Shown in pieces: positions 22,570-51,669 of a stretch of 64,000 nucleotides of DNA. The number at the start of each line of letters is the position of its first letter. The first letter of the stretch is position 1. Both the position numbers and the translations under genes were made by a program. The notes beneath the pieces were generated by a model. The model searched no databases and was not told where the DNA came from. It was given only the letters and a program-made list of their open reading frames with translations. This stretch comes from an uncultured Holophagaceae bacterium (lineage in GTDB: Bacteria; Acidobacteriota; Holophagae; Holophagales; Holophagaceae), in assembly GCA_903884655.1 (NCBI GenBank), contig CAISFO010000017.1:21149-85148 (forward strand). Reading direction: 5' to 3'.

Positions 22570-23379
22570 TTGAGGACCATGGCGCTACCTAGCACGCCGC
22601 CTGACAAGATGAGCTTCTGGGAACACCTGCAGGAACTGCGGGTGCGCATCGTCCGTTCCCTTCTCATCGTACTGGGTGTGTTCACCTTCACCTACGGCTT
22701 CCCTTTCGGCTACCACGACCTCCCGTCCTTCCGGTTCAAGCTCTGGGCCTGGTCCCAGCAGCCCTTCCTGAAGGCCATGGCCAAGCAGACCGGCAAGGCC
22801 ATCTCCGAACTCCAGCCATTCGCCTTCACGGACCTCACCGAGCCCTTCTTCAGCATGATGCGGTTGTCCCTCTGGACCGCCGGGTTCCTTGCGGCGCCTT
22901 TCCTCTTCTACCAGCTGTGGGCCTTCATCCGCCCCGGGCTGATGCCGAAGGAACGCCGGCTCGTCGTCCCCTTTGTCTTCGTCACCTCGGCCTGCTTTCT
23001 CGGCGGGGCCATCTTCGCCTACTACCAGGCCATCGGCTTCCTGGGGGACATCCTCTTCCAGGAGGCCGCCGCCGCGGGACTCCGGGCCAACCTGCACGCC
23101 TCCGAGTACCTCGATCTCTTCATCTGGACCATCGTCATCACCGGCATCATGTTCGAGCTGCCGGTGCTGTTCTACTTCCTTGCCCGGTTCCGCCTGGTCA
23201 CCGCCCGGTGGATGCTGAAGTACTGGCGCCACGCCACCCTCATCATCGTCATCTTCAGCGCCTTCTTCACGCCGGGCGACGTGATCATCACCGCCATCTT
23301 CTTCAGCGTCCTGCTGCTGGGTCTCTACTTCATCTCCATCCTGGTGGCCTGGCTCGCCGAGCCCCGTCAACCCAGGTAG
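22570..23379 (+). CDS. tatC: Twin-arginine translocase subunit TatC
   Basis: It has FWEHLQELRVRIVRSLL, six predicted TM helices, and FALTPGDV-like FFTPGDVI. Confidence 0.93.
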   Translation: MRTMALPSTPPDKMSFWEHLQELRVRIVRSLLIVLGVFTFTYGFPFGYHDLPSFRFKLWAWSQQPFLKAMAKQTGKAISELQPFAFTDLTEPFFSMMRLSLWTAGFLAAPFLFYQLWAFIRPGLMPKERRLVVPFVFVTSACFLGGAIFAYYQAIGFLGDILFQEAAAAGLRANLHASEYLDLFIWTIVITGIMFELPVLFYFLARFRLVTARWMLKYWRHATLIIVIFSAFFTPGDVIITAIFFSVLLLGLYFISILVAWLAEPRQPR

Positions 23380-24455
23380 TCAGCCAGATCCTCCAGGCAG
23401 AGCCGAACGGCCTGGTTGGGCTCTGGAGGCCGGGACAGGGCTTGACGGGAGGCCGGGTCCTCCATCAAGGGCTGCAGCGCCGTCTGCAGACGCTTCGCCA
23501 GTCCATCCGCCTGCTCAATGACAAGGGCCCGTCCTTCCCTGGCCATGGCCAGGGCGTTCCTGCGCTGATGATCCCCCGCGCTGGTGGGCAGAGGCACCAG
23601 GAGCGCCCCTCGGCCGGCTGCTTTCAACTCGGCGCAGGTGCTCGCTCCGGAACGACTCACCACCAGGCTTGCCGCTTCCATTGCCTCATCAACACCTGTG
23701 ATGAAGGGGACCAGGATGTGGCGGGGGTGTCTGGACCGGCCTTGAAGCCGCTCTACCTCCAAGGGCCCAGCCTGGTGCTGGAGTTCCCATTCGGGCAGGC
23801 GCTCCAACAGGGCCGGAGCCAGTTCCAGCATCGCCTCATTGATGGCGCGGGCTCCCCCGCTGCCCCCCAGGACCAGAAGCCGATAAGGGGGCAGCAGGGA
23901 TTCGACCGGGCGGAAATCCCGGAGGAAGACCTCCCGCACGGGGGTCCCGACGACCCGGCAATCTGCCCCAGGCAGCAGGGTCCGAGCCGCCTCCATGCCG
24001 CACCACACGCGCCGCGCCTTCCGCGCCACCAGTTTCACCAAGGCACCGGGGGCGGCGTTGCTTTCGTGCAGGAAATAAGGAATGCCCAGGGCACGGGCTG
24101 CCAGCAAGGCTGGAGCGGCTCCATAACCACCGGTGCCAACCACCACCCGGGGTCGTTCCCTGCGCCAGATGATTTTCAGCTGAGCTACAGCCCGCCAGAG
24201 CTTCCAGGCAGAAGTCGCCACTCGCAGGGGTGAACGCCCCACCATCCCTTCCACATCCAGCAAGGTGTACGGCCATGGACCGGCCGGAAGTTCACGTGCC
24301 TCGATGCCCCGCCGAGCCCCGACGAAACAGATGGGCTGGTCAGACCAGCGCCTCCTGGCCCCTTCTGCCAATGCGATGGCAGGGAAAAAATGCCCCCCTG
24401 TTCCTCCACCAGTGAGAACGAGGGCACCCCTGAAACTCGGCAGGTCATCGCGCAT
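23367..24455 (-). CDS. murG: Undecaprenyldiphospho-muramoylpentapeptide beta-N-acetylglucosaminyltransferase
   Basis: It has LTGGGTGGHFFPAIALAE, a GT28 C-terminal domain (SRSGASTCAELKAAGRGALLVPLP) and AGDHQRRNA. Confidence 0.92.
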   Translation of the reverse strand: MRDDLPSFRGALVLTGGGTGGHFFPAIALAEGARRRWSDQPICFVGARRGIEARELPAGPWPYTLLDVEGMVGRSPLRVATSAWKLWRAVAQLKIIWRRERPRVVVGTGGYGAAPALLAARALGIPYFLHESNAAPGALVKLVARKARRVWCGMEAARTLLPGADCRVVGTPVREVFLRDFRPVESLLPPYRLLVLGGSGGARAINEAMLELAPALLERLPEWELQHQAGPLEVERLQGRSRHPRHILVPFITGVDEAMEAASLVVSRSGASTCAELKAAGRGALLVPLPTSAGDHQRRNALAMAREGRALVIEQADGLAKRLQTALQPLMEDPASRQALSRPPEPNQAVRLCLEDLADYLG

Positions 24456-24675
24456 GATCCGTCCACCATATCTGGAAGTTCACTGAACTTACCTGGAGAC
24501 AGTTTCGAAGCTGAGTTGAGGGTGCCTGCCACCTACCCGGGGGCAACGGTAAATCCTGGAAAAGGCAACACAACTTACCGAGGGATAGGTGGGATAAATA
24601 GGCATTCCTCAGGCTAAACTCTTCCTTTGGGTCTGCTATCGGCCGGCCCGCGAATGACGTATCAGTGGAGCGCTC

Positions 24676-25425
24676 ATGAAGATCCTCGTCGCCATCAAAC
24701 AGGTTCCCGACACTGAAAGCAGGATCAAGGTCGCGGCCGATGGTCGCAGCCTCGATCCGGTGGACGTCAAGTGGATCACCAGTCCCTATGACGAATACGC
24801 CCTGGAGGAAGCCATCCGCATCAAGGAGGGCAAGGGCGCGGAAGTCGTGGCCATTTCCGTCGGCGGGGATACCACCAAGGAAGTGCTCAAGAACGCGCTG
24901 GCCCTCGGCGCCGACAGTGCCGTGCTCTTGAGGGGCGACGGCCAGGGCGATGCCTTCGCGGTGGCCCAGATGATCGCCGCTTATGCCAAGGACAAGGGCT
25001 TCGACCTGATCCTCTGCGGCAACATGGGGCTCGGTGGGGACAACTCCGCCATGGGGCCCATGCTCGCGGAACTCCTGGGTGTGGGACAGGCCAACGTGGT
25101 GGTGAAACTCGAACTCGGAGAAGGCACTTTCAAGGCCGAGCGCGAAATCGAAGTGGGCTCTGAGATCGTGGAGGGCTCCCTGCCGGCGGTGATCACGGCC
25201 CAGAAGGGCCTGAATGAGCCCCGCTACGCGAGCCTGAAGGGCATCATGGCCGCCAAGAAGAAGACCATCGAAGAACTGGAAGGCACGCCGGTCGTCGCCG
25301 GTGCCCTGGTCAGCACCCTGGCCCTGCCCCCGGAGCGTCCCGCAGGACGCCGGCTGGAAGGCGAGCCGGCCGCCCAGGCTCAGGCCCTGATCCAGGCCCT
25401 CAAGGATGAAGCCAAGGTCTTCTAG
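24676..25425 (+). CDS. etfB: Electron transfer flavoprotein beta subunit
   Basis: MKILVAIKQVPDTESRIKV... and DLILCGNMGLGGDNSAMGPMLAELLG are typical EtfB. Confidence 0.93.
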   Translation: MKILVAIKQVPDTESRIKVAADGRSLDPVDVKWITSPYDEYALEEAIRIKEGKGAEVVAISVGGDTTKEVLKNALALGADSAVLLRGDGQGDAFAVAQMIAAYAKDKGFDLILCGNMGLGGDNSAMGPMLAELLGVGQANVVVKLELGEGTFKAEREIEVGSEIVEGSLPAVITAQKGLNEPRYASLKGIMAAKKKTIEELEGTPVVAGALVSTLALPPERPAGRRLEGEPAAQAQALIQALKDEAKVF

Positions 25426-25463
25426 GCCACCCTCCACAGACTTCCGATTCGAAAGGATGATTC

Positions 25464-26435
25464 ATGATTCTCGTGTTCTGTGAACTGAAGGACGGCCAGC
25501 TCCGCAAACCCAGTGCCGAGGCGCTGAGCGAGGGCCGCCGACTGGCAGATGCCTCGGGCAAGAAGCTCGGCGCCATCTTCGCAGGCGCCTCCTGCGCGGG
25601 CTCCGCCGAGGCCGCCAAATACGGCGCCGATGTGATCCTCTGCGCCGAAAGCCCCACCCTGGCCTCCTACTCCAGCGATGCCTTCGCCGGCCTCCTCGCG
25701 GATGCCGTCACCGCCAAGGGCGCCACGGTCCTGCTGGCCGCAGCCACCTCCGTCGGGAAGGATGTGACTCCCCGTACGGCAGCGCGTCTTGGCGCGGGGT
25801 ACGCGTCGGACGTGACCGCCCTGTCCATGGTGGAAGGCAAGCTCGTGGCCGTTCGTCCTGTCTACGCCGGCAAGGCCTTCGCCACCACCAGCTTCGCCAG
25901 CCCGGTCCAGGTGGCCACCACCCGTCCCAACGTGTTCCCCGCCGCCGAGAAGGCAGGCGCCGGCGCGGCGGAAGCCCTCGCGGCTCCCGCTGGCGGCTTC
26001 AAGGCCGTGGTGAAGGAAATCCTGGCCAAGGCCAGCGGCAAGGTGGATCTCAGTGAGGCCAATGTCATCGTCAGTGGCGGCCGTGGCATGAAGGACGGCG
26101 CCAACTTCAAGATCCTCGAAGAGCTGGCGGATGCCCTCGGGGGCGTTGTTGGCGCCTCCCGCGCCGCCGTGGACGCAGGCTGGGGCCTGCCTCACAGCAT
26201 GCAAGTGGGCCAGACCGGCAAAGTGGTGAGCCCCACCCTCTACATCGCCTGCGGCATCAGTGGTGCCATCCAGCACATTGCCGGCATGAGCGGATCGAAG
26301 TTCATCGTCGCCATCAACAAGGATTCCGAGGCGCCCATCTTCAAGCTTGCGAACTACGGCATCGTCGGGGACTTGTTCGAAGTGGTGCCTGAACTGACCA
26401 AAGCCGCCAAGGCGTTGGGCATCGGTTCCAACTAA
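25464..26435 (+). CDS. etfA: Electron transfer flavoprotein alpha subunit
   Basis: The FAD-binding C-terminus [46 protein letters not shown] is the EtfA signature. Confidence 0.93.
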
Positions 26436-26533
26436 CTCGCTGCGGGGGTCCCGCGCTTCGCGCACACCCCCGCGCCCCCGCGCTCGGTGCGGGCTAAGCC
26501 CGCTCCTCGCTTTACCTTCCCCATCCTGACTGC

Positions 26534-32021: not shown

Positions 32022-33977
32022 ATGAAGCGCATCCTCCTCCTCCGCGGGGCCGAGCTCATTGTCTTCGCCTTCCTCGCCACCATCCCCCTGCTGGTGGTGA
32101 ATCCCTACGCCTTGGGCCTGCTCACCCTGCTGGCCATCTACGGCATCCTGCTCATCGGCCTCGACGTGACCGTGGGCTACCTGGGCCAGGTGAACCTCGC
32201 CCACGTGGCCTTCCTCGGCCTGGGCGCCTACACCGCCGGCCTGGCCGTCACCCGGTTTGGCCTGGGCATGGCCCCGGCGCTGCTGGCGGCCATGCTTGTG
32301 GGCCTGCTGCTGGGCGGCCTGTTGGCCCTGCCGGCTCTGCGGTTGGAAGGCCCCCAGTTCGCCCTCGCCACCCTCAGCTTCGCCGCCCTCAGCACCACGG
32401 CCCTCAACGAGCTGGAGGGCCTCACGGGCGGTGCCCAGGGCCTCAGCCTCAGCCGGCCGCCGGTCTGGGGCCACGTACTGACCCCGCCCCTCTTCTACTG
32501 GCTCTGCATGGCCCTGCTGGCGGTGGTGTGGATGCTCATGCGCAACCTGCTGGCCTCGCAGTGGGGCCGGGCCTTCGAGGCCCTGCGCGACAGCCCCATC
32601 GCCACGGACGCCATGGGCGTGGGCACCTACCAGCACAAGGTCGCCGCCTTCGCCCTGGGCTCGAGCCTGGGTGGCCTGGCCGGTGGGCTCTATGCCTTCA
32701 ACTTCCAGTACCTCCAGCCCCAGAGCTACACCTACGACCTGATGATCATCCCGCTCCTCGGCGTGGTGCTGGGGGGGCGCAAGAGCCTGTGGGGCGCCTT
32801 CGTGGGAGCCTCGGTCATCGTCCTCCTGCCCAACCTGCTGTCGAACCGCCACCTCTTCCAGATCTTCTCGGGCCTGGGCTTCGCCATGGCTCTGGCGGCC
32901 GGACTGCGCGGCCTCGTGAAGAAGACCACCCGTCCCTTCCAGGCTCTGGCGCCCGTGGTGGCCATGGGCATGCTGGTGGTGGGCGGCTTCTTCGTGGAGA
33001 ACACCGAGGATTGGCGCAAGGCCATCTTCGCCCTCATGCTCTTTTCCGTGGTGGTGGGCCTGCCCGAAGGCCTCATGGGCTTCCTGTCCATCTTCCTGGC
33101 CAAGCTCTTCCGGGTGCCCCAGGCGCCCCTGCCCGAACCCTCCGATATTGAAACCATCCTGCCCCCGAGGGCCGCCGATGGCGCGCCCCTCCTCGTGCTG
33201 GAGGATCTCAAGCGGTACTTTGGCGGTGTGAAGGCCGTGGACGGCCTGTCCATGACCATCCATTCCGGCTCCATCCACGGCCTCATCGGACCCAATGGCT
33301 CGGGCAAGAGCACCGTGGTGAACGTCATTTCGGGCCTCTACACCCCCAGCTCGGGCCGCATCCTGCTGCGGGGCGCGGTGCTGCCCTCCGGCAGCCTGTA
33401 CCAGGTGTCGAAGTCCGGCGTGGCGCGGACCTTCCAGAACCTCCAGCTCTTCGGCGAGCTCACGGCCCTGGAGAACGTCATGGTGGCGCTAAAGGGCGTC
33501 TACCGCAGCCCCCTGCCCCTGGTGCTGCTGGGCCTGGCACGGCTGGAAGAACGGCGAGCCCAGGCGGACGCCCTCTGCCTGCTGGATAGGATCGGCCTCA
33601 AGGACCAGGCCCTCACCAAGGCCAAGGACCTCACCTACGGGGCCCAGCGCTTCCTGGAAGTGGCTCGTGCATTGGCCCGCAAGCCTGACCTGCTGATCCT
33701 GGACGAGCCCGCCGCTGGCCTGGCCCACCCGGACGTGGTCCAGTTGATCGAGATCATCCGGCGGGTCCACAAACGCGGCATCAGCATCCTCCTCATCGAG
33801 CACCACATGGATGTCGTAAGCGAGCTCTGCGACACCGTGACCGTGCTGGATGGCGGCAAGGTCATCGCCGAAGGCCCCCCCGAGGAGGTGAAGCGCCATC
33901 CAAAGGTGATCGAGGCCTACCTGGGCCAGCCCGTACAAACTGAAGTCCCTGGCGGCCCTGAGCCGCTTCCCGCCTGA
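32022..33977 (+). CDS. Fused branched-chain amino acid ABC permease (LivM-like) and ATP-binding protein (LivG-like)
   Basis: The N-terminal roughly 390 aa are a multi-TM LivM-like permease (GLDVTVGYLGQVNLAHVAFLGLGAY). The C-terminal ATPase has GLIGPNGSGKST, YGAQRFLEVARAL and LLILDEPAAG. Confidence 0.88.
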   Translation: MKRILLLRGAELIVFAFLATIPLLVVNPYALGLLTLLAIYGILLIGLDVTVGYLGQVNLAHVAFLGLGAYTAGLAVTRFGLGMAPALLAAMLVGLLLGGLLALPALRLEGPQFALATLSFAALSTTALNELEGLTGGAQGLSLSRPPVWGHVLTPPLFYWLCMALLAVVWMLMRNLLASQWGRAFEALRDSPIATDAMGVGTYQHKVAAFALGSSLGGLAGGLYAFNFQYLQPQSYTYDLMIIPLLGVVLGGRKSLWGAFVGASVIVLLPNLLSNRHLFQIFSGLGFAMALAAGLRGLVKKTTRPFQALAPVVAMGMLVVGGFFVENTEDWRKAIFALMLFSVVVGLPEGLMGFLSIFLAKLFRVPQAPLPEPSDIETILPPRAADGAPLLVLEDLKRYFGGVKAVDGLSMTIHSGSIHGLIGPNGSGKSTVVNVISGLYTPSSGRILLRGAVLPSGSLYQVSKSGVARTFQNLQLFGELTALENVMVALKGVYRSPLPLVLLGLARLEERRAQADALCLLDRIGLKDQALTKAKDLTYGAQRFLEVARALARKPDLLILDEPAAGLAHPDVVQLIEIIRRVHKRGISILLIEHHMDVVSELCDTVTVLDGGKVIAEGPPEEVKRHPKVIEAYLGQPVQTEVPGGPEPLPA

Positions 33978-43238: not shown

Positions 43239-45179
43239 TCAGGACCGCCCCACTTGGACCAGTACCGCCTTTGCCAGATCCGTAAGTGAAGGATCACGGG
43301 CACCCATCACGAGGATGAGGTCACCGTCTCTGGCTTCGGCCGCCAGCCGACCCACCAGTTCTTCGCGCGAGGGCGCCAGCTCTGCGGCCACGCCACGCTC
43401 CGCGATCTCCTGGATCACTTCAGCGCTGCCAATGTCCCGGTTGGCCGTGCCCCCGGCATAGAACACATCGAGGAACCAGAGGCGGTCCAGGGGTTGTAAC
43501 TCCTTGGCGAAGGTCTCTACGAATTCCGAACGAAGGAACTTGAGGGGGCCGAAGCCGTGGGGCTGGAAGACCGCCATTACCCGGCCGCCCGTGGCCTGGA
43601 CCCGGAGGTGGGCCGCCCGGATCGAGGCTGCCACCTTCGCGGGATTGTGGCCGAAGTCGTCCACCACCGTCACGCCCCGGTGCGTGCCCAGTACCTGGAA
43701 GCGCCTGGCAACCCCCTGGAACGCCTGGAGAGGTGCCACCATGGCCGCGAGGGGCACACCCAGGGCCTCGCAGGCAGCCATGGCCGCCAAGGCGTTCTCC
43801 ACGTTGTGCCGGCCCGGCACCGGCAGCTGGAAAACCTGGTCCTTCACCCGAAAGGTGGAACCCTCCGCATGCAGACACACATCTTCGGCCCGAAGATCCG
43901 CCTGCTCGCCAAAACCGAAGACCACCGCGGCGGGGGCGAACTCCCGCAGGTTGTCGGCTTCGCCCACCACCAGGGTCTCTCGGATCTGGGCCCGGAAGAC
44001 GCGGAACATCTCCGCCACGGCGTCCATCTCCTTGTGGTCCCGCTGCAGGTTCAGCAGCACGCCCACAGCGGGATGGTAGCGCACGACGGTGCCATCGCTT
44101 TCATCGGCCTCCACGACCAGCAGGTCAGAGGCCCCCGCCCAGGCATTGCCCCAGCGGCCCTCCCGCTGCAGCGCAACCAGCTCGCCACCGGTGATGACAG
44201 AGGGGTCCAGCCCCACGCCGCGCAGGATCTCGAAGGCCATGGCCACCGTGGTGGACTTGCCACTGGTGCCCGTCACCGCCACGGTGCGGTACCGGGCCAC
44301 GAGGTGGGCCAGGAGGTCCGAGCGATGCAGCACCGGGATGCCGAGGAGCCTGGCAGTCGCCACATCCGGCACGTCCTCTTCCACCGCAGTGGACACGATC
44401 AGGGCTGAGCAGTCGCCCTTCAGGCCAGCACCATCCTGGGGATGAATGACCACTCCCAAGGCTGCCAGCATGGCTCTGGCCTCGAGCCGCTGGCCCCGGT
44501 CGAAGCTGCGGTCGCTGCCGCTGGCACGACCCCCCTTCATGGCCACGAACTGGGCCAGGGCGCTCATGCCGCTGCCCGCCACCCCCGCGAAGTGCAGGCG
44601 CCCCAGGCCAAGACTGTCATTTCCCAGATCCCCCGCGATGAGGACGGCATCCCCCTCGGCGACGCGGTCAAAGAGATCAGCCACCGCAGTGTTAGCCAGA
44701 CGCACGCAGCCATGGGACACCGGCTGGCCAAGCAGGCTTTCCTGGTTGGTGCCGTGCAGGTAGATGAAGCGCGCCAGGGAGTCCCGCCCGGGACCGCGGT
44801 TCCAGCCTGTCTCCAAGCCATCCAGCGTCAGCACGCGAGTCAGGATGAGGTCCTCATCGCGGGGTTCGCCGTGCCAGACATCTCCCGTGGCCACACGGTT
44901 GCGAAAGACGGTTCCCCCCTCCGCACCGGCACCGATGCGCTCGTGAATGCGGTGCCAGCCCGTGGGCGTGCGATACGAATTCTCTTCACAACCCAGACCG
45001 TTCCGGGCGGTGGAGATGACAGCCTCGAATTGCAGGCGTCCGTCCTCCATCAGGCCCAGGCGCTGGGCCACCGTGTCCACCACCAGGACTCTGGAACTGC
45101 GATCCAGCGAGGGTGAGCCCTCGCGGGCCGCATTGGCGAGCAAGAGGGCGCGATACCTGGCGGCGTGCATGGGATCCAT
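43239..45179 (-). CDS. Fusion protein: YkuD (L,D-transpeptidase catalytic fold) domain + MurC-like Mur ligase
   Basis: The N-terminal roughly 185 aa carry the YkuD signature YLHGTNQESLLGQPVSHGCVRLANTAV (Cys codon at 44706..44708). The rest is a Mur ligase: FAGVAGSGMSALAQ, VAVTGTSGKSTT, EADESDGT, GRHNVENALAA, DDFGHNP. No N-terminal signal peptide or TM helix is visible. The ATG at 45179 overlaps the upstream stop (ATGA). Confidence 0.85.
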   Translation of the reverse strand: MDPMHAARYRALLLANAAREGSPSLDRSSRVLVVDTVAQRLGLMEDGRLQFEAVISTARNGLGCEENSYRTPTGWHRIHERIGAGAEGGTVFRNRVATGDVWHGEPRDEDLILTRVLTLDGLETGWNRGPGRDSLARFIYLHGTNQESLLGQPVSHGCVRLANTAVADLFDRVAEGDAVLIAGDLGNDSLGLGRLHFAGVAGSGMSALAQFVAMKGGRASGSDRSFDRGQRLEARAMLAALGVVIHPQDGAGLKGDCSALIVSTAVEEDVPDVATARLLGIPVLHRSDLLAHLVARYRTVAVTGTSGKSTTVAMAFEILRGVGLDPSVITGGELVALQREGRWGNAWAGASDLLVVEADESDGTVVRYHPAVGVLLNLQRDHKEMDAVAEMFRVFRAQIRETLVVGEADNLREFAPAAVVFGFGEQADLRAEDVCLHAEGSTFRVKDQVFQLPVPGRHNVENALAAMAACEALGVPLAAMVAPLQAFQGVARRFQVLGTHRGVTVVDDFGHNPAKVAASIRAAHLRVQATGGRVMAVFQPHGFGPLKFLRSEFVETFAKELQPLDRLWFLDVFYAGGTANRDIGSAEVIQEIAERGVAAELAPSREELVGRLAAEARDGDLILVMGARDPSLTDLAKAVLVQVGRS

Positions 45180-47125
45180 CAGGCCCCCACGATCCGCCCC
45201 GCCAAGGCGCTGGCAGCAACGGTGGCGGGACTGGCCAGCCATACCTGGCCGGGGCCGCTGCGGCCGGGGAAATTCCGGTTGATGGCGCTGATGGTCACCT
45301 GATCAGGACGGGTGGACACCCCCGGCCCGGCATTGATGCAGACCCCGCAGGAGCTCCCGAGAACCACCGCGCCCACGGCCTCGAAGGCCGCCATCCAGCC
45401 CTGCTCTGCCGCGAAGCGCCGCACGTCCTCACTGCCGCACTGCACGAAGAACTGCAAGCCTTCCGGAACACGCCGACCCTGATCGGCGGCCGGTTTCACC
45501 ACCTCGTAGGCCCGCCGCAGATCCTCGCGCTTGCCGCCGGTGCAGCTGCCCAGGTAGGCGATATCGATGGACACGGCCACACCCAGGTCCGCCAGGGCCA
45601 CGCCATGGCCCGGATCCCCAGGCCGGGCCAGCATGGGTCCCAGGGTCCCGCAATCCACCTCCAGCTTGTGAGCGTAGTCGGCACCCTCGTCCCCCCGCAT
45701 CCAGGGCTCCAGGTCCACAGCCACGCCACGCCGCTCCCGGACGAACCGCACCGTTTCTTCGTCCGGCGCGACCAGGCCCGTGAAACCGCCGATTTCCGCG
45801 GCCATGTTGGTGAGGGTGGCGCGTTCGTCGGTATCCAGGTCGAGCAGTCCTTCGCCCTGGTACTCGATGACATGGCCGATGGCGCCACCTTCGCGGATGA
45901 GGGGCTGGGCCAGCAGGTGCAGGACCAGGTCCTTGGCCGATACCCCGGACCGCAGGCGGCCCCGCAGGAGCACCCGCAAGGTGGGGGGCACGGTGACGCG
46001 CACATCCCCGGTCACCCAGGCGCAGGCGATGTCGGTGGTGCCCACGCCGAAGGCCAGGCAGCCCAGGGCCCCCGCGTGAGGCGTATGAGAATCCGTGCCC
46101 ACGATCACCTGGCCCGGGCAGGCGTAGCGCTCGGCCATGATCGCGTGGCAGATGCCTTCGCTGCCGGAACCATCCAGGAGTTCACCGTGGAGCCGGATGC
46201 CGTGCTTCGCGCAGAAGTCCTCCTGGGCGGGCTTCAACCGTTCGGCCACGGTCAGCAGGCCCAGCGCCCGGTGCTCCGCCTTCATGCTGTGGTGCAGGAA
46301 GGTGAGGTGGTCCCGGAAGGCCAGGATGCTTCCGGGATCCCGGAGCACGGTGGCCGGCCCCAGAGCCTTCTCGAGGAAGCTCGCGGCCATGGGCGTGACG
46401 TATTCGTGGCTGAAGCGCCAATCAGCCTGCACGAATAGGCCGTCACCGGGCCTGACCACGGGAAGCCCGATGACTCGGTCGGCCGCATTCACGACCGTGT
46501 GGCGGGCCAGCAGTTTTTCCGCATAGGTCATGGGGCGCGGCCCATGCTCCGGCAGGGGCGGCACCACCTCGCCTCTGAGCCGGGCCGCGTTGTAGGCGAA
46601 GAGGCCGCCCCGGCGCACGATCTCGGCGGTGACAGGATCCAGGCCAGCGGTGAACTCGACCAGGGGTATGGCTTCGCCCCGCCGGAGCCGCGGGATCAGG
46701 CCGAAGTCCGTGCTGGTAAGCAGCCCCAGGTTCTGGGCGTTCTGGCGGTAGATGCGCTCGAAGCTCTCGGCGATCACCAGCCGGATCCCCGCGCATTGTT
46801 CCGCGTAGGGACTCGCTTCCCGGCTGCTGCCCTTGCCCCGGCGCCTGCCCGCCACGCTGACGGAGAATCCACCGGCGCGGACGGAGCCTGCTGTGATCGG
46901 AAAAGCCTCACCGCACTTCAGCCCCAGGTAGGGGAAGTCCCCCAGTTTCTCGTCAAAGTGGTAGCAGATGTAGGCCGGCGTGATCTCGTCCGTGCTGATC
47001 TGGTCCCGGAGGGGCAAGGTCTGATCCAGCCCAAGGTCCTCGCCCGCAAGCTGACGGCTCATGTGGTCCGCATCCGCGGAAAGGAAGAGAACTCGGCCAT
47101 CGAAGCGGACAGGGTCAGACTGCAT
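45179..47125 (-). CDS. Aconitase/3-isopropylmalate dehydratase family protein, swivel (LeuD-like) domain N-terminal to catalytic (LeuC-like) domains
   Basis: The N-terminal swivel domain has GRRRGKGSSREASPYAEQCAGIRLVIAESFERIYRQNAQNLGLL. The catalytic part follows with VGTDSHTPHAGALG, YLGSCTGGKRED, SSCGVCINAG and NRNFPGRSG. Confidence 0.85.
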   Translation of the reverse strand: MQSDPVRFDGRVLFLSADADHMSRQLAGEDLGLDQTLPLRDQISTDEITPAYICYHFDEKLGDFPYLGLKCGEAFPITAGSVRAGGFSVSVAGRRRGKGSSREASPYAEQCAGIRLVIAESFERIYRQNAQNLGLLTSTDFGLIPRLRRGEAIPLVEFTAGLDPVTAEIVRRGGLFAYNAARLRGEVVPPLPEHGPRPMTYAEKLLARHTVVNAADRVIGLPVVRPGDGLFVQADWRFSHEYVTPMAASFLEKALGPATVLRDPGSILAFRDHLTFLHHSMKAEHRALGLLTVAERLKPAQEDFCAKHGIRLHGELLDGSGSEGICHAIMAERYACPGQVIVGTDSHTPHAGALGCLAFGVGTTDIACAWVTGDVRVTVPPTLRVLLRGRLRSGVSAKDLVLHLLAQPLIREGGAIGHVIEYQGEGLLDLDTDERATLTNMAAEIGGFTGLVAPDEETVRFVRERRGVAVDLEPWMRGDEGADYAHKLEVDCGTLGPMLARPGDPGHGVALADLGVAVSIDIAYLGSCTGGKREDLRRAYEVVKPAADQGRRVPEGLQFFVQCGSEDVRRFAAEQGWMAAFEAVGAVVLGSSCGVCINAGPGVSTRPDQVTISAINRNFPGRSGPGQVWLASPATVAASALAGRIVGA

Positions 47126-47263: not shown

Positions 47264-49234
47264 ATGCACGCCCGGTCCTTTTTCATCGGCCTGGCCTGGC
47301 TGGCCCTGACTCTGTGCCGGGCCCAGGAGGCACCCCCCGTGGCTCCACCACCAGCCCCCTCCCAGGACCACCTGGATGGAGGGCTGCTGCAGCCTCAGTG
47401 GTTCGGCCCGGGCCCCGTCTGGACCCGGGACTGGCAGGCGGACTTTTTCTGGGCGAAGCCCGGCGTGCGCCTGGACCCGCCCGCCATCTACCTCCACCCC
47501 TGGGAAGAGCCGAAGTTTCTGACTCGGAAGGATCCCCTGGACTACGCCTCGGGCTGGGAGGGTGCGGAGTTCCTTCAGACCATGCTCCGAACGCGTCTGA
47601 GCGGGCTCCCTGGATTGCGGGTTGTCGCCTCGCCGTCCGAGACGCCCTACCACGCCATGGGGCGGATCGTGGAGGCCACCCACATCCGCCAGGGAGCCGT
47701 CGCCACCTTCGGCCCCCTCGCGGGCCTCCCCACCTTCACCTGGGACTTCAAGGTGGTGGATGTCCGCACGGGTGACGTGCTGCTGGGCTCCCATCACCGC
47801 AGCGTCTGGGCCCCGGCATCTGCCTGGATCTCGGTCCTCGAGCAGCCGATGCGCCAGATGGTCGGGTTGCCACCCACCCCGGAGTGGAAACAGCCTCCTG
47901 GAGCCCAGGAGGAGGAGGACGGCAGCTGGACCTGGGTGGCGCCAGATCTGCTCCTTTCACCAGGTTGCCTGGAAGCCGGGCCATGGTCGGCTGAAACGGA
48001 CCGGTCGGCGAAGTTCAATCTCGGCTTCGCAACCGGCAATGCCCTGCGTGCGGAGCAGTGCCTCCGGGTCAGGCTGGCCCGCTCGAGGCTGGGCAGGCGC
48101 GGTGAAGGCGTGCCGGCCTTCCTGCTCACGGGAAGAACCTTCAGCTCGATGAAGTACCTTTTGCTTCGCTACCGGGCCCAGGTGACCGAAGTGGCCACAG
48201 GCCGGGTCGTTGTCCAGCTCGAGCTCCGCCAGCCGTTCGGCTTCTCGCCAGCATCGATCTCGGAGCAGGTGGCCGAGCGGATTGTCGCCCGCCTGGAGGT
48301 GTTGCAGGAGGGCGTGGTCAAGCCCCCTGCCTCAGGGCCAGAGGCCAGCATGGCCAGGGCTCAAACCGTGCCAGAGCCAGGACCCACGGGACAAGGCAGC
48401 CTCCTGACCTTGAATTCCGTGGGCAATCAAGGTGAGGCGGGTCGTCTTCCTGCGACTCCAACGCCGGATAAGAGCATGGAGAATCCTCAGCCGGGGCGTC
48501 CAGTGCCAGACCTAGGCGCAACTGTGTCTGAGTCGGTGAGCGCTGATGTGGAGAAGCGCGTTCCGAGTGATCCATCCCGAAGTCCTTTGACCGACAGGGT
48601 GGTGACGGCCGCTGCAGCCCAGGCCCCAGCGCGTCCCTGGGAGGGATTGGACCGCCTCGCTCCCGCAGCTGGAGGGGTGGACAAGGCCTGGGTGAGCCCT
48701 CTGCTGGAGCTGTCTGGGCGGACCCTCCTGGTGGGTGAGTGGAGCGAGCCCACGCTGAAACCCGAAGCCGACAGCTATGATCGCCAGGTGGCCAGCTCCA
48801 TCTCAGCGCGGGCGCCAGCCTGGCTTTATGGCGCGCTGGCAGCGCACCCAGATCGCGGCTTCAAGATCAACCGGCAGGAAGGCGATCTGCGATTGGAGGG
48901 CCGCGTGGTGCACCTCTACCAGCCGGACCGGTCCAAGATTTCGACGATGATGGGCCAGGCATTCACGTTAGGCCTGTCTACCAAAGCCGAGGGAATACTC
49001 CAACTGCGTGTTGTGGACATGGCCACCGGTACGACCCTCGCCTTGGTCGAAGAGAACCTGGGCAGCTTCCAGATGGCCTCCACGGGCATTCCCTACAAGG
49101 CCTTCAAGTGGCTGGCCCAGGACCTGGTGCCCTGGCTCCTCAGGGAAGGCCTTCGCCCGGATCAGCCAAAATCCGCTCCGGCAGAGGTACCTCAGGTCGA
49201 CCCGAAGGGAACCCCGGCTCAGCCCAGCTCGTGA
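47264..49234 (+). CDS. Secreted hypothetical protein with three related small beta domains
   Basis: It has a signal peptide (FFIGLAWLALTLCRAQEA). Three segments share the pattern G-R-V...VVD-x-x-TG (GRIVEATH...FKVVDVRTGDVLL; QVTEVATGRVVVQLEL; LEGRVVHLYQ...LRVVDMATGTTLAL). A Pro/Ser-rich linker is also present. Confidence 0.65.
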   Translation: MHARSFFIGLAWLALTLCRAQEAPPVAPPPAPSQDHLDGGLLQPQWFGPGPVWTRDWQADFFWAKPGVRLDPPAIYLHPWEEPKFLTRKDPLDYASGWEGAEFLQTMLRTRLSGLPGLRVVASPSETPYHAMGRIVEATHIRQGAVATFGPLAGLPTFTWDFKVVDVRTGDVLLGSHHRSVWAPASAWISVLEQPMRQMVGLPPTPEWKQPPGAQEEEDGSWTWVAPDLLLSPGCLEAGPWSAETDRSAKFNLGFATGNALRAEQCLRVRLARSRLGRRGEGVPAFLLTGRTFSSMKYLLLRYRAQVTEVATGRVVVQLELRQPFGFSPASISEQVAERIVARLEVLQEGVVKPPASGPEASMARAQTVPEPGPTGQGSLLTLNSVGNQGEAGRLPATPTPDKSMENPQPGRPVPDLGATVSESVSADVEKRVPSDPSRSPLTDRVVTAAAAQAPARPWEGLDRLAPAAGGVDKAWVSPLLELSGRTLLVGEWSEPTLKPEADSYDRQVASSISARAPAWLYGALAAHPDRGFKINRQEGDLRLEGRVVHLYQPDRSKISTMMGQAFTLGLSTKAEGILQLRVVDMATGTTLALVEENLGSFQMASTGIPYKAFKWLAQDLVPWLLREGLRPDQPKSAPAEVPQVDPKGTPAQPSS

Positions 49235-49410: not shown

Positions 49411-51669
49411 ATGAATGCCTTCGAGGCCGATCTCCAGGCCACCCAGTCCTACTTCGACCGCCCACGGTTCACCGGAATCCGGCGGCTCTTCTCTCCGCGG
49501 CAGGTGGTCGAGCAGCGGGGCCTCATCGCCCAGGACTACACCGTGGCGCGAGAGGCCGCCGAAGCCTTCCATGCCAGGCTCCGGGAGCTGTTCTCATCCC
49601 AAAAGTCCATCACCACCTTCGGGCCCTATTCACCGGGCCAGGCCGTGGCCATGAAGCGCAAGGGCATTGAGGGGATCTACCTGGGAGGCTGGGCCACGTC
49701 GGCCAAGGGATCCGTGTCTGAGGATCCCGGGCCGGATCTGGCCAGCTACCCGCTCTCCCAGGTTCCCGACGAAGCCTCTGGGCTGGTCAGGGCCCTGCTC
49801 ACCGCGGACCGCAACCAGCGTTTCCTCCGCGCCCGGATGTCCCCCGATGTGGCCGCCGCCACACCCGAAATCGACTTCCGCCCCTTCATCATCGCGGACG
49901 CCGACACCGGGCACGGCGGGGATCCCCATGTCCGCAACCTGGTCCGCCGCTTCGTCGAGGCAGGCGTCCCTGGCTACCACATCGAGGACCAGCGTCCGGG
50001 CACCAAGAAGTGCGGCCACCAGGGCGGCAAGGTGCTGGTGCCCTCTGACGAGCAGATCAAGCGGCTCAATGCGGCCCGCTTCCAGCTCGACGTCATGCGG
50101 GTGCCCGGCATCATCGTGGCCCGCACGGATGCGGAAGCGGCCAACCTCCTGGAAAGCCGGAGTGATGAGCGGGACCAGCCCTTCATCCTCGGGGCGACCA
50201 ATCCCTTCGTGCCTTCCTACAAGACCTGCATCCTCGCCCTGCACCGCCGGTTCTACGCCCTGGGTGTCACCGAGCTCAACGGGCACCTGCTCTACGAGAT
50301 CCCCGAGTTCCAGTGCGCCGCCGCCGACGCCTGGCTGGAGCGGTCCGGGCTGGAATCCGTCATCGCGGAGCATGCCGCCGCCTGGCAGAAGGGTGCCTTC
50401 GTCCATCTCGACGCCATGTTCGACAAGGTCGAGTCCCGCTTCATCGAGGCCTGGGAGGCCGATGCTGGGCTGGAGACCTACGGCGACGCCGTGGCCGAGG
50501 TCCTGGCCTTCAGGATCTCCGAGGGCGAGACCTTCCCGATCACCCTGGAAGCCTGGAATGCCTTCGCCCACACCGCTTCCCTGGGGGCCGCCCAGGAGCG
50601 GGCCGAGCGGCTTGGACTCTTCGTGACCTGGGACTGCGAAACCGCCAAGACCGCCGAGGGCTACTACCAGGTCCGCGGCGGCATCCCCTACGCCATCGCA
50701 AAGTCCCTGGCGGCCGCCCCCTTCGCGGACATCCTCTGGATGGAGACCAAGACGGCGGATCTGGCCGACGCCAAGGTCTTTGCGGACGCCATCCATGCGG
50801 TCTTCCCGGACAAGATGCTCGCCTACAACCTGTCTCCCTCCTTCAGCTGGGATTCCACGGGCATGAGCGAGGACGACATGCGCCGCTTCCCTGAAGAACT
50901 CGGGAAGCTGGGCTTCGTCTTCAACTTCATCACCTATGGCGGCCACCAGGTCGACGGCCTGGCGGCGGAGGACTTCGCCACCGCCCTGCAGCAGGACGGC
51001 ATGCTGGCCCTGGCCACCCTCCAGCGGAAGTTCCGGATGCTGGAGTCCCCCTACCGGACCCCCCAGACCCTGGTGGGCGGCCCCCGGCTGGATGCGGCCC
51101 TGGCCGCCTCCTCGGGCCGGACCTCGACCACCAAGGCCATGGGCAAGGGCTCGACCCAGCACCAGCACCTGATCCAGACCGAGGTCCCGAAAAAGGTTCT
51201 GGAGGACTGGCTGGGCATCTGGAAGGAACACTACGGGATCCAGGACGGCCTGGGTGTCACCCTGCTGCCGCATCGGGCTGGTTCAGAGCTGCTGGAGCTC
51301 AGTGTCATCGGCAAGGGCGGGGAGAAGCACGCCAACCTGATCTTCGCCCCGATCCGGGACCGCCGGGGCCGCAGCATCCTGTCCGTCCGGGACCAGAACA
51401 CCTTCTCAGAGCTGCTTCGCAAAAAGCGGCTCATGACCCTGGTCCATCTCTACCTGATCCACCGCTACAAGGTGGATTCTGTCCACTACGTCACTCCCAC
51501 CGAGGACAACCAGTACCAGGCGGGCAAGATGCGGGAACAGGGGCTCTTCACCGAAGTGGGTCAGGAGGTCGGGCAGATCATCGTCGCCGACGTCAATCCG
51601 GAGCGGGTCAAGGCCCTGCTCGATCCTGGGAAGGACGCCCTCCGGAAGCTCATCAGGAAGGAGAGCTGA
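49411..51669 (+). CDS. aceA: Isocitrate lyase, long (ICL2-type) form
   Basis: It has [11 protein letters not shown] and the catalytic loop [22 protein letters not shown]. At 752 aa it carries the extra domains characteristic of long ICL isoforms. Confidence 0.93.

Follow-up and report, generated by a model that had tools for sequence, protein, structure and literature searches.

What could a cell do with a single polypeptide that joins a YkuD domain (L,D-transpeptidase fold) to a ligase of the Mur family? The question is raised by a gene on the minus strand of a 64,000-nucleotide stretch of DNA from an uncultured Holophagaceae bacterium (Acidobacteriota; contig CAISFO010000017.1, positions 21,149 to 85,148), the whole of which is called the window here. 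An earlier note, made from the sequence alone, had proposed that the protein is cytoplasmic and provides a one-polypeptide route for recycling peptidoglycan stem peptides. Our comparisons of sequence, predicted structure and gene context lead us to suggest that the fusion is a cytoplasmic two-step enzyme of peptidoglycan peptide salvage, which would trim tetrapeptides and then religate the resulting tripeptides to UDP-MurNAc (UDP-N-acetylmuramic acid); we give this proposal an even chance of being right.

A YkuD domain fused in frame to a complete Mur ligase

The minus-strand open reading frame (ORF) runs over 43239..45242 and offers two candidate ATG codons, at 45179 (646 aa) and at 45242 (667 aa). 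The ATG at 45179 has one base in common with the stop codon of an upstream aconitase-family gene (TGATG), and the 646-aa length that it gives is that of an identical database protein, nearly all homologues being 640-654 aa long. Numbered from this ATG, the parts of the gene and its protein are as follows.

43239..45179, minus strand: whole coding sequence, 646 aa plus stop, ElsL-like YkuD domain and MurC-like ligase (ORF list, Pfam, database homologues)
45093..45179, minus strand: N-terminal ~29 residues, of which 3-16 are predicted to be helical; no signal peptide (sequence, hydropathy, alignment of N-termini, AlphaFold2 model)
44634..45092, minus strand: YkuD domain, a putative ElsL-like L,D-carboxypeptidase, residues 30-182 (Pfam YkuD at 69.8 bits, NF040925, identity to ElsL)
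44754..44756, minus strand: codon of the catalytic His142 (IYLHGT), invariant in 26 fused and split homologues
44706..44708, minus strand: codon of the catalytic Cys158 (SHGC), invariant in the 26 homologues and aligned with the SHGC cysteine of ElsL
44601..44633, minus strand: linker GDLGNDSLGLG between the halves, residues 183-193 (alignment of fused and split forms; crossed by contigs without insertions or deletions)
44286..44597, minus strand: N-terminal (UDP-MurNAc-binding) domain of the Mur ligase, including GSGMSALA (PF01225, 58.3 bits)
43770..44276, minus strand: middle (ATP-binding) domain of the Mur ligase (PF08245)
44247..44270, minus strand: P-loop GTSGKSTT, within the middle domain
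44088..44111, minus strand: EADESDGT, within the middle domain
43296..43706, minus strand: C-terminal domain of the Mur ligase, for the incoming amino acid or peptide (PF02875, 71.4 bits; family-specific signatures)
43641..43661, minus strand: DDFGHNP, at the place of DDY(G/A)HHP in MurC (alignment; residue roles from PMC3060825)
43545..43565, minus strand: QPHGFGP, at the place of QPHR(F/Y)(T/S)R in MurC (alignment; residue roles from PMC3060825)

The Pfam models YkuD, Mur_ligase, Mur_ligase_M and Mur_ligase_C each scored above the gathering score (in that run, which was numbered from the ATG at 45242 and so on a protein of 667 aa, YkuD spans residues 51-202). The in-frame fusion of a YkuD domain to a complete, three-domain Mur ligase, as first read from the letters, thus holds. 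The motifs by which it had been recognized, namely HGTNQESLLGQPVSHGCVRL (residues 142-161 of the 646-aa protein), GSGMSALA, GTSGKSTT, EADESDGT and DDFGHNP, and the cysteine codon at 44706..44708, are all where they had been placed. In databases the Geothrix version of the protein goes by the name of either half, as "L,D-transpeptidase family protein" or "UDP-N-acetylmuramate--alanine ligase".

The fusion is conserved and appears to be cytoplasmic

A frameshift or an assembly artefact near 44600 could have produced such a protein, or it might have been an exported L,D-transpeptidase. The database matches speak against an artefact. The four-domain architecture was found in all of the 120 best matches, which come from many named Geothrix species and from metagenomes, so that at least 120 independent Geothrix homologue clusters share the fusion (the protein search gives the best 120, and these were filled by close relatives). 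More distant full-length fusions were found at 60% identity and, in a Chitinispirillaceae genome, at 46%. Two Logan contigs from one lake metagenome also span the domain junction without insertions or deletions (indels), at 44553-44763 and 44302-44763. Of these, one matches the window exactly and the other is a co-occurring strain variant, which over 44302-44763 has 40 substitutions in 462 bases and 0 indels.

That the junction can break is seen in Methyloceanibacter stevinii (locus L086, 6001-7939), where the two parts, a YkuD protein of 232 aa and a ligase of 438 aa, are called as separate genes with an overlap of 77 nt. In related metagenome-assembled genomes the same region is one fused ORF, and the split in M. 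stevinii may reflect a frameshift, whether genuine or due to a sequencing error. With homologues in several phyla and indel-free contigs of two strain variants across the junction, the fusion is real and conserved.

The earlier note had seen neither a signal peptide nor a transmembrane segment, and the hydropathy of the N-terminus agrees in showing no sign of either. Over the first 60 residues the Kyte-Doolittle value of a 10-residue window reaches at most 1.29, on a beta-strand of the YkuD domain; the first ~30 residues are not hydrophobic, vary among relatives and form a helix in the AlphaFold2 (AF2) model. Because the N-terminus is not hydrophobic, and because it is followed by a ligase that depends on ATP and a UDP-sugar, substrates that it would not have outside the cytoplasm and without which it cannot work in the periplasm, a cytoplasmic location is, as judged from sequence, secure. 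Homologues, indel-free contigs, the non-hydrophobic N-terminus and the ligase fusion between them leave an artefact or an exported transpeptidase with a negligible probability, and we exclude both.

The AF2 model, whose alignment included 65 YkuD-only or truncated homologues, has a mean predicted local distance difference test score (pLDDT) of 97.2 and a predicted TM-score (pTM) of 0.94, with no residue below 70. These values suggest that the two halves would pack in a defined way, as opposed to swinging on a loose tether. The means of 10-residue blocks are 93-98 in the YkuD half, which is mostly beta-strand, and 93 in the block of residues 181-190, in the linker region. In the fold search the YkuD half was part of the whole model, for which the matches were dominated by Mur ligases.

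The YkuD half is a homologue of ElsL

The YkuD half matches PF03734 at 69.8 bits against a gathering score of 23.4, and the match extends over positions 2-146 of the 146 in the profile. Among the NCBIfam models NF040925 (ElsL) fits it best, at 124.8-128.7 bits, while models of periplasmic L,D-transpeptidases score ~24 bits. The curated cut-off of NF040925, an exception-level model, lies at 270 bits and is not reached. Since NF040925 is nonetheless the best model by ~100 bits, and since the half is 40% identical to Acinetobacter baumannii ElsL along its full length (ElsL residues 11-162 of 167, E 9e-43), we grade it, by sequence, as an ElsL homologue and not as an equivalog. The same two results favor the suggestion that this YkuD domain would be of the cytoplasmic L,D-carboxypeptidase type.

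ElsL is a cytoplasmic L,D-carboxypeptidase with an essential catalytic cysteine (C138 in the numbering of that paper), which converts the disaccharide-tetrapeptide to the tripeptide, leaves the pentapeptide uncut and acts upstream of Mpl; the synthetic lethality of elsL and ldtAb is suppressed by null alleles of mpl or ampG (PMC8649774). Like the fusion, ElsL (LdtK) has the catalytic His and the SHGC Cys and carries no export signal, and the two share the blocks STxxNGxG...TPxGWHR and LDGLExGxNxGxG. The domain in the window differs from ElsL in an extra N-terminal helix of ~30 residues and in being fused to a Mur ligase, or in relatives operon-coupled with one, whereas ElsL is a stand-alone protein of ~167 aa that does not adjoin mpl. 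Its catalytic motif HG(T/S)...SHGC is intact, and an alignment of 26 fused and split relatives has 28 invariant positions, His142 and Cys158 among them. According to Pfam, Mur ligase domains are the only ones that accompany the YkuD domain, and no peptidoglycan-binding domain is present.

With 646 aa the fusion lies outside the single-domain criterion of 105-200 aa used by Dai et al., and its split relatives have 179-232 aa. That ElsL ortholog survey dropped proteins of more than 200 aa (Dai et al. 2021, PMC8649774), and fusions would therefore have escaped it. A tblastn search with the YkuD domain of 7.3 Gb of plasmid-labelled records gave five matches, four in A. baumannii and one in Caballeronia. 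The one A. baumannii match that was examined, of 167 aa, scores 328 bits on NF040925 and is therefore, by this model, ElsL itself. The reaction and pathway position proposed for the YkuD half are also those of LdcA (peptidase S66) of E. coli, which differs in its unrelated fold and serine mechanism and in not being fused to a ligase.

YkuD enzymes can also catalyse exchange reactions (PMC8649774), and the module might accordingly build or edit a non-canonical precursor, with the YkuD domain acting as an exchange transpeptidase on UDP-MurNAc-tetrapeptide; the amino-acid site of the ligase, which resembles neither that of MurC nor that of Mpl, would suit such a role. We consider this improbable, as the YkuD half is ElsL-like over its whole length, ElsL is a selective carboxypeptidase, and conserved tailoring genes are absent from the neighbourhood.

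The ligase half stands apart from canonical MurC and from Mpl

The ligase had been described as MurC/Mpl-like, and the likeness to MurC stands. Its best solved relatives are MurCs (E ~1e-57), and the AF2 model fits the closed product complex of Haemophilus influenzae MurC (HiMurC, 1p3d) with a target-normalised TM-score of 0.88 and a root-mean-square deviation of 2.2 A, while the Mpl structure 3hn7 ranks 22 by fold, with a target-normalised TM-score of 0.68. With MurC (TIGR01082, 1p3d) it has in common the three domains, the catalytic residues and the closed-state fold. The P-loop, EADESD, DH and RR residues are invariant, as are G304, G307, K308, E357, E360 and S361 across the MurC-like family described below; in form the ligase half thus appears to be active, with all catalytic residues for UDP-MurNAc activation kept.

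An assignment to canonical MurC or to Mpl does not hold. On TIGR01082 (murC) the window protein scores 301.6 bits against a cut-off of 335.1, and nine other ligases of its family score 283-331 bits, all under the cut-off; on TIGR01081 (mpl) it scores 115.7 bits against 388.7. When 1.84 billion cluster representatives were searched, the 150 best matches included 141 of at least 400 aa, and these were aligned. All 24 family members sampled across their range carry GT(S/N/A)GK(S/T)(T/S), DD(F/Y)AHNP and (Q/H/R)(P/L)HG(F/Y)(G/A/S/K/F)P, where E. coli MurC has GTHGKTT, DDYGHHP and QPHRFTR. The phylogeny that the earlier note had called for places the ligase in a separate clade: 82 family sequences are monophyletic against six canonical MurCs, those of E. 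coli, Sinorhizobium, Sphingomonas, Paracoccus, Streptomyces and Paenibacillus. Of these references, the four from proteobacteria stand in the gene order of the division and cell wall (dcw) cluster, unlike those of Streptomyces and Paenibacillus. Members of the family share 47% identity with one another and the canonical MurCs 46%, against 32% between the two groups.

The differences extend to the site of the incoming amino acid. In HiMurC, L-Ala is bound by Tyr346, His348, His376, Arg377 and Arg380 (PMC3060825). The counterparts in the window protein are F509, H511, H541, G542 and P545, so that both His residues are kept, and among the aligned members of the ElsL-linked clade Y346, R377 and R380 are replaced by F (27/27), G (26/26) and P (26/26). 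The second His of the MurC motif DDY(G/A)HHP is Asn512 here. Further family-specific changes in the C-terminal domain are HNP..K, AGGT and MGARDP, such that the family reads DDF(A/G)HNP..K, QPHG(F/Y)GP, AGGT and MGARDP where MurC has DDY(G/A)HHP..E, QPHR(F/Y)(T/S)R, AGE and GAG(D/N/S/T). Again unlike the usual MurC, the ligase gene in the window is not in a dcw cluster.

Mpl shares part of this pattern. E. coli Mpl has a Phe at the Tyr346 position and lacks both arginines, so that Mpl (DDFAH..P) and the window ligase have the same replacement of the MurC tyrosine and the same loss of the MurC arginines. The proposed role, religation of a recycled stem peptide directly after an L,D-carboxypeptidase step, would also be that of Mpl. 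In sequence and fold, however, the window ligase is far nearer to MurC, and the Mpl-specific motif (S/T)AFFDKRSK is absent: EADESDGT is followed by VVRY, where E. coli Mpl has EADEYDCAFFD. By these alignments the ligase is neither a canonical MurC nor an Mpl and falls into a MurC-like family of its own, in which the amino-acid site is altered. If its function is shared with Mpl, that function would have arisen independently from a MurC-like ancestor. The family is named inconsistently in databases, as MurC, "Mur ligase domain-containing protein" or "L,D-transpeptidase family protein".

These results also bear on whether the ligase might be a genuine UDP-MurNAc:L-alanine ligase, that is, a divergent housekeeping or second MurC, in which case the ElsL domain would only put trimming beside the first committed step, for instance for clearing UDP-MurNAc-tetrapeptide. 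MurC is by far the best match by family and by fold, and every catalytic residue for UDP-MurNAc activation is retained. However, every family member tested falls below the curated murC cut-off, and across the ElsL-linked clade other residues stand where MurC holds the carboxylate of L-Ala. With the gene contexts considered below, we judge an L-Ala ligase to be unlikely, though a serious contender.

The pairing recurs across phyla

A scan for two family motifs in one genome per GTDB species gave at least 600 matches, of which the best 80 loci were analysed. These come from Holophagae (including Holophaga foetida DSM 6591), Alphaproteobacteria (Methyloceanibacter), Eisenbacteria, Krumholzibacteriia, Nitrospirota, Elusimicrobia, Fibrobacter, Planctomycetota and many Bacteroidota. 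A hidden Markov model of the YkuD half found it fused to the ligase in 20 of the 80, as a separate ORF overlapping or abutting the ligase start in 5, and 6 kb away from the ligase in 1. Fused or abutting pairs occur in Holophagae, Alphaproteobacteria, Nitrospirota, Eisenbacteria, Krumholzibacteriia and Fibrobacteraceae. In a neighbour-joining tree the fused and split forms all lie in one part of the family, and the Bacteroidota with Fibrobacter, as well as most Elusimicrobia, branch off as stand-alone clades of their own.

When the search started from the YkuD half, most of the proteins found were shorter than ~230 aa. Two stand-alone YkuD homologues were looked up, one of them from the isolate M. 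stevinii, and both have an overlapping Mur ligase gene directly downstream. A coupled trim-and-religate route, as the earlier note had imagined it, leads one to expect the two functions to be fused or adjacent, and fused or in overlapping neighbours is how they are found in several phyla. Many YkuD-only proteins with no Mur ligase domain are labelled 'UDP-N-acetylmuramate--alanine ligase' by the Joint Genome Institute, which looks like annotation transferred from fused proteins.

The alphaproteobacterial fusions group with those of Holophagae (59-63% identity) and not with the dcw MurC of their own class. For this reason the fusion gene in Alphaproteobacteria is, on the sequence evidence, an accessory paralogue or xenologue, and at least there an L-Ala ligase that serves as the housekeeping MurC is disfavored, the copies not being orthologous to the resident dcw MurC. 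Plasmid carriage was considered as proof of accessory status and dropped: PLSDB yielded no family member, its matches being canonical MurCs at no more than 37% identity, which served as a source of reference sequences. The Methyloceanibacter-like Alphaproteobacteria have in addition a large gene directly downstream of the ElsL-ligase gene, on the opposite strand (L086 7949-11299; L010 11391-13337; L012 11398-13188; L013 11384-13222; L017 11379-14585; L060 11390-12982). In L086 it encodes a YcbB-type L,D-transpeptidase (Pfam Scaffold and YkuD), and the L013 copy has an SHGC motif.

Apart from its two members the pair appears to travel alone. No partner recurred when neighbours were censused with Pfam, 99 of them in Bacteroidota and 115 at fused or split loci, and when the ORFs of the fetched loci were clustered all against all, nothing but promiscuous families emerged (response regulators, ECF sigma factors, ABC ATPases and kinases). 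The YkuD-ligase pair is thus self-contained, with no other conserved neighbour.

In 77 of the best 80 loci there are no dcw genes near the ligase, which is not what would be expected of a housekeeping L-Ala ligase. The exceptions are three Elusimicrobia loci with murD and/or murE nearby, and these contexts favor such an enzyme. There (L027, 7555-14416; L039; L054) a stand-alone family ligase lies near murD, and in L027 and L054 near murE too; dapA-asd-dapB stand directly upstream of it in L027 and, by ORF clustering, in L054. The motif of the Elusimicrobia ligase is QPHAF(T/A)S, not QPHGFGP, and this ligase may be the housekeeping MurC of the phylum or a variant linked to diaminopimelate (DAP). 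Stand-alone members from Bacteroidota (L035, L043, L047, L050-L057, L061-L084) and Fibrobacter (L046, L058, L070-L073, L083, L085) make up a large branch of the family, found in variable, non-dcw contexts with no YkuD gene nearby.

A proposed two-step salvage enzyme

In the first step of the proposed route, the ElsL-like domain would trim a stem tetrapeptide to the tripeptide, the substrate being possibly a free peptide, a peptide on (anhydro)MurNAc or a peptide on UDP-MurNAc. In the second, the ligase, as a MurC-derived paralogue with an opened-up L-Ala carboxylate-binding site, would activate UDP-MurNAc with ATP and join the tripeptide to it, giving UDP-MurNAc-tripeptide, which is the substrate of MurF. 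Together the halves would do the job of LdcA (or ElsL) and Mpl in E. coli and A. baumannii.

Enzymes for consecutive steps are often fused or operon-coupled. Three things, the ligase's peptide substrate, the succession of the two steps and the physiological role, we infer from this tendency and from A. baumannii, in which ElsL and Mpl act in consecutive steps and are coupled genetically (PMC8649774). The fusion would then ensure that only trimmed peptides are religated, such that no UDP-MurNAc-tetrapeptide would form, the toxic product when trimming fails, as in ldcA and elsL mutants (PMC8649774, PMC13046382). Of the one-polypeptide recycling route of the earlier note, homology to ElsL, conservation of the fusion and recurrence of the pairing favor the coupling itself, and what is refined is the MurC/Mpl-like label of the ligase, which is neither Mpl nor canonical MurC.

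Several points weigh against this proposal. Both its sequence and its fold place the ligase much nearer to MurC than to Mpl, and the (S/T)AFFDKRSK motif of Mpl is missing from it. The loss of both arginines is family-wide and includes the Elusimicrobia members that stand beside dapA-asd-dapB and murD-murE; as these are possible housekeeping MurCs in a biosynthetic context, the loss alone is no proof of a peptide substrate. Some Bacteroidota members are named MurC by NCBI. Neither the window ORFs scanned nor the commonest neighbour families at related loci include ampG, ampD or nagZ. Finally, the ligase must add L-Ala if Geothrix and Holophaga have no other canonical MurC, and no second murC lies within the 64-kb window, the region to which this count refers.

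Apart from the missing recycling genes, these are largely the points that favor an L-Ala ligase: the closeness to MurC, the Elusimicrobia neighbours, the family-wide arginine loss, the NCBI labels and the single murC-like gene in the window. Against it, beyond the cut-offs, the replaced carboxylate-holding residues and the contexts given above, stands the consideration that no metabolic logic is obvious for an L-Ala ligase fused to a tetrapeptide carboxypeptidase, whereas for fused consecutive steps there is one.

Genomic context in the window

The earlier note had remarked that murG lies outside any dcw cluster, and a tblastn search of the 64-kb window with the E. coli dcw proteins bears this out, since only the fusion gene and murG matched. 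The isolated murG has no visible bearing on the fusion gene. Three neighbouring ORFs on its strand are without a Pfam match (22585-23370, 24445-25437 and 25422-26465, minus strand). Besides murG, the only other cell-wall enzyme noticed in the window is a protein with SPOR and NlpC/P60 domains, which by its domains is probably a septal peptidoglycan endopeptidase. These and other features of the window are as follows.

23367..24455, minus strand: murG (GT28 N- and C-terminal domains), away from other dcw genes
32022-33977, plus strand: branched-chain amino-acid ABC transporter, permease (BPD_transp_2) and ATPase (ABC_tran) fused, 651 aa
36076-37185, minus strand: long ORF, 369 aa, no Pfam match
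45179-47125, minus strand: aconitase-family protein with the Aconitase_C swivel domain N-terminal (residues 91-137), before the main domain
47264-49234, plus strand: long ORF, 656 aa, no Pfam match
49411-51669, plus strand: isocitrate lyase family protein, unusually long, 752 aa
56024-56821, minus strand: SPOR and NlpC/P60 protein

A functional link between the fusion gene and the upstream aconitase-family gene was considered, given the overlap of start and stop codons, and rejected because the synteny of the two genes is confined to Geothrix and Holophagaceae.

Implications for peptide recycling

Both halves of the protein are of known kinds; what is new is the combination, its recurrent pairing across phyla and the separate ligase family. 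A literature search found no report of a YkuD-Mur ligase fusion or of this MurC-like family. Precedents for fused consecutive steps of precursor synthesis are MurC-Ddl (NF011171), MurE-MurF (NF008896) and the MurB/C of Verrucomicrobium. Those proteins join biosynthetic enzymes, whereas the present one joins a degradative or recycling peptidase to a ligase, and no example of such a peptidase fused to a Mur ligase was found in the literature.

Trimming by LdcA or ElsL followed by religation by Mpl is established mainly in Gamma- and Betaproteobacteria, and we know of no LdcA/Mpl peptide-religation route described for Holophagae, Nitrospirota, Eisenbacteria or the Alphaproteobacteria concerned here. 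Many bacteria lack LdcA and Mpl and are assumed to degrade the peptides to amino acids (PMC13046382). With slightly less than an even chance of being right, we further suggest that the large MurC-derived family contains one clade that turned into a murein-peptide ligase independently of Mpl, and that in Holophagae, Nitrospirota, Eisenbacteria and some Alphaproteobacteria this clade is part of a portable, self-contained, ElsL-coupled recycling module, whose fused form may channel the trimmed peptide directly between its two active sites.

Religation of untrimmed peptides by Mpl is the only reason why a loss of ElsL or LdcA does harm, and a fusion that enforces the order of the two steps would therefore be instructive as a pathway design. 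In vitro tests of the protein are simple, and the key predictions are within reach of standard assays. The proposal would give a first testable function to a large and inconsistently named family of MurC-like proteins. If it is true, bacteria would have a second, independently evolved peptide ligase, and peptide religation would be commoner than has been thought.

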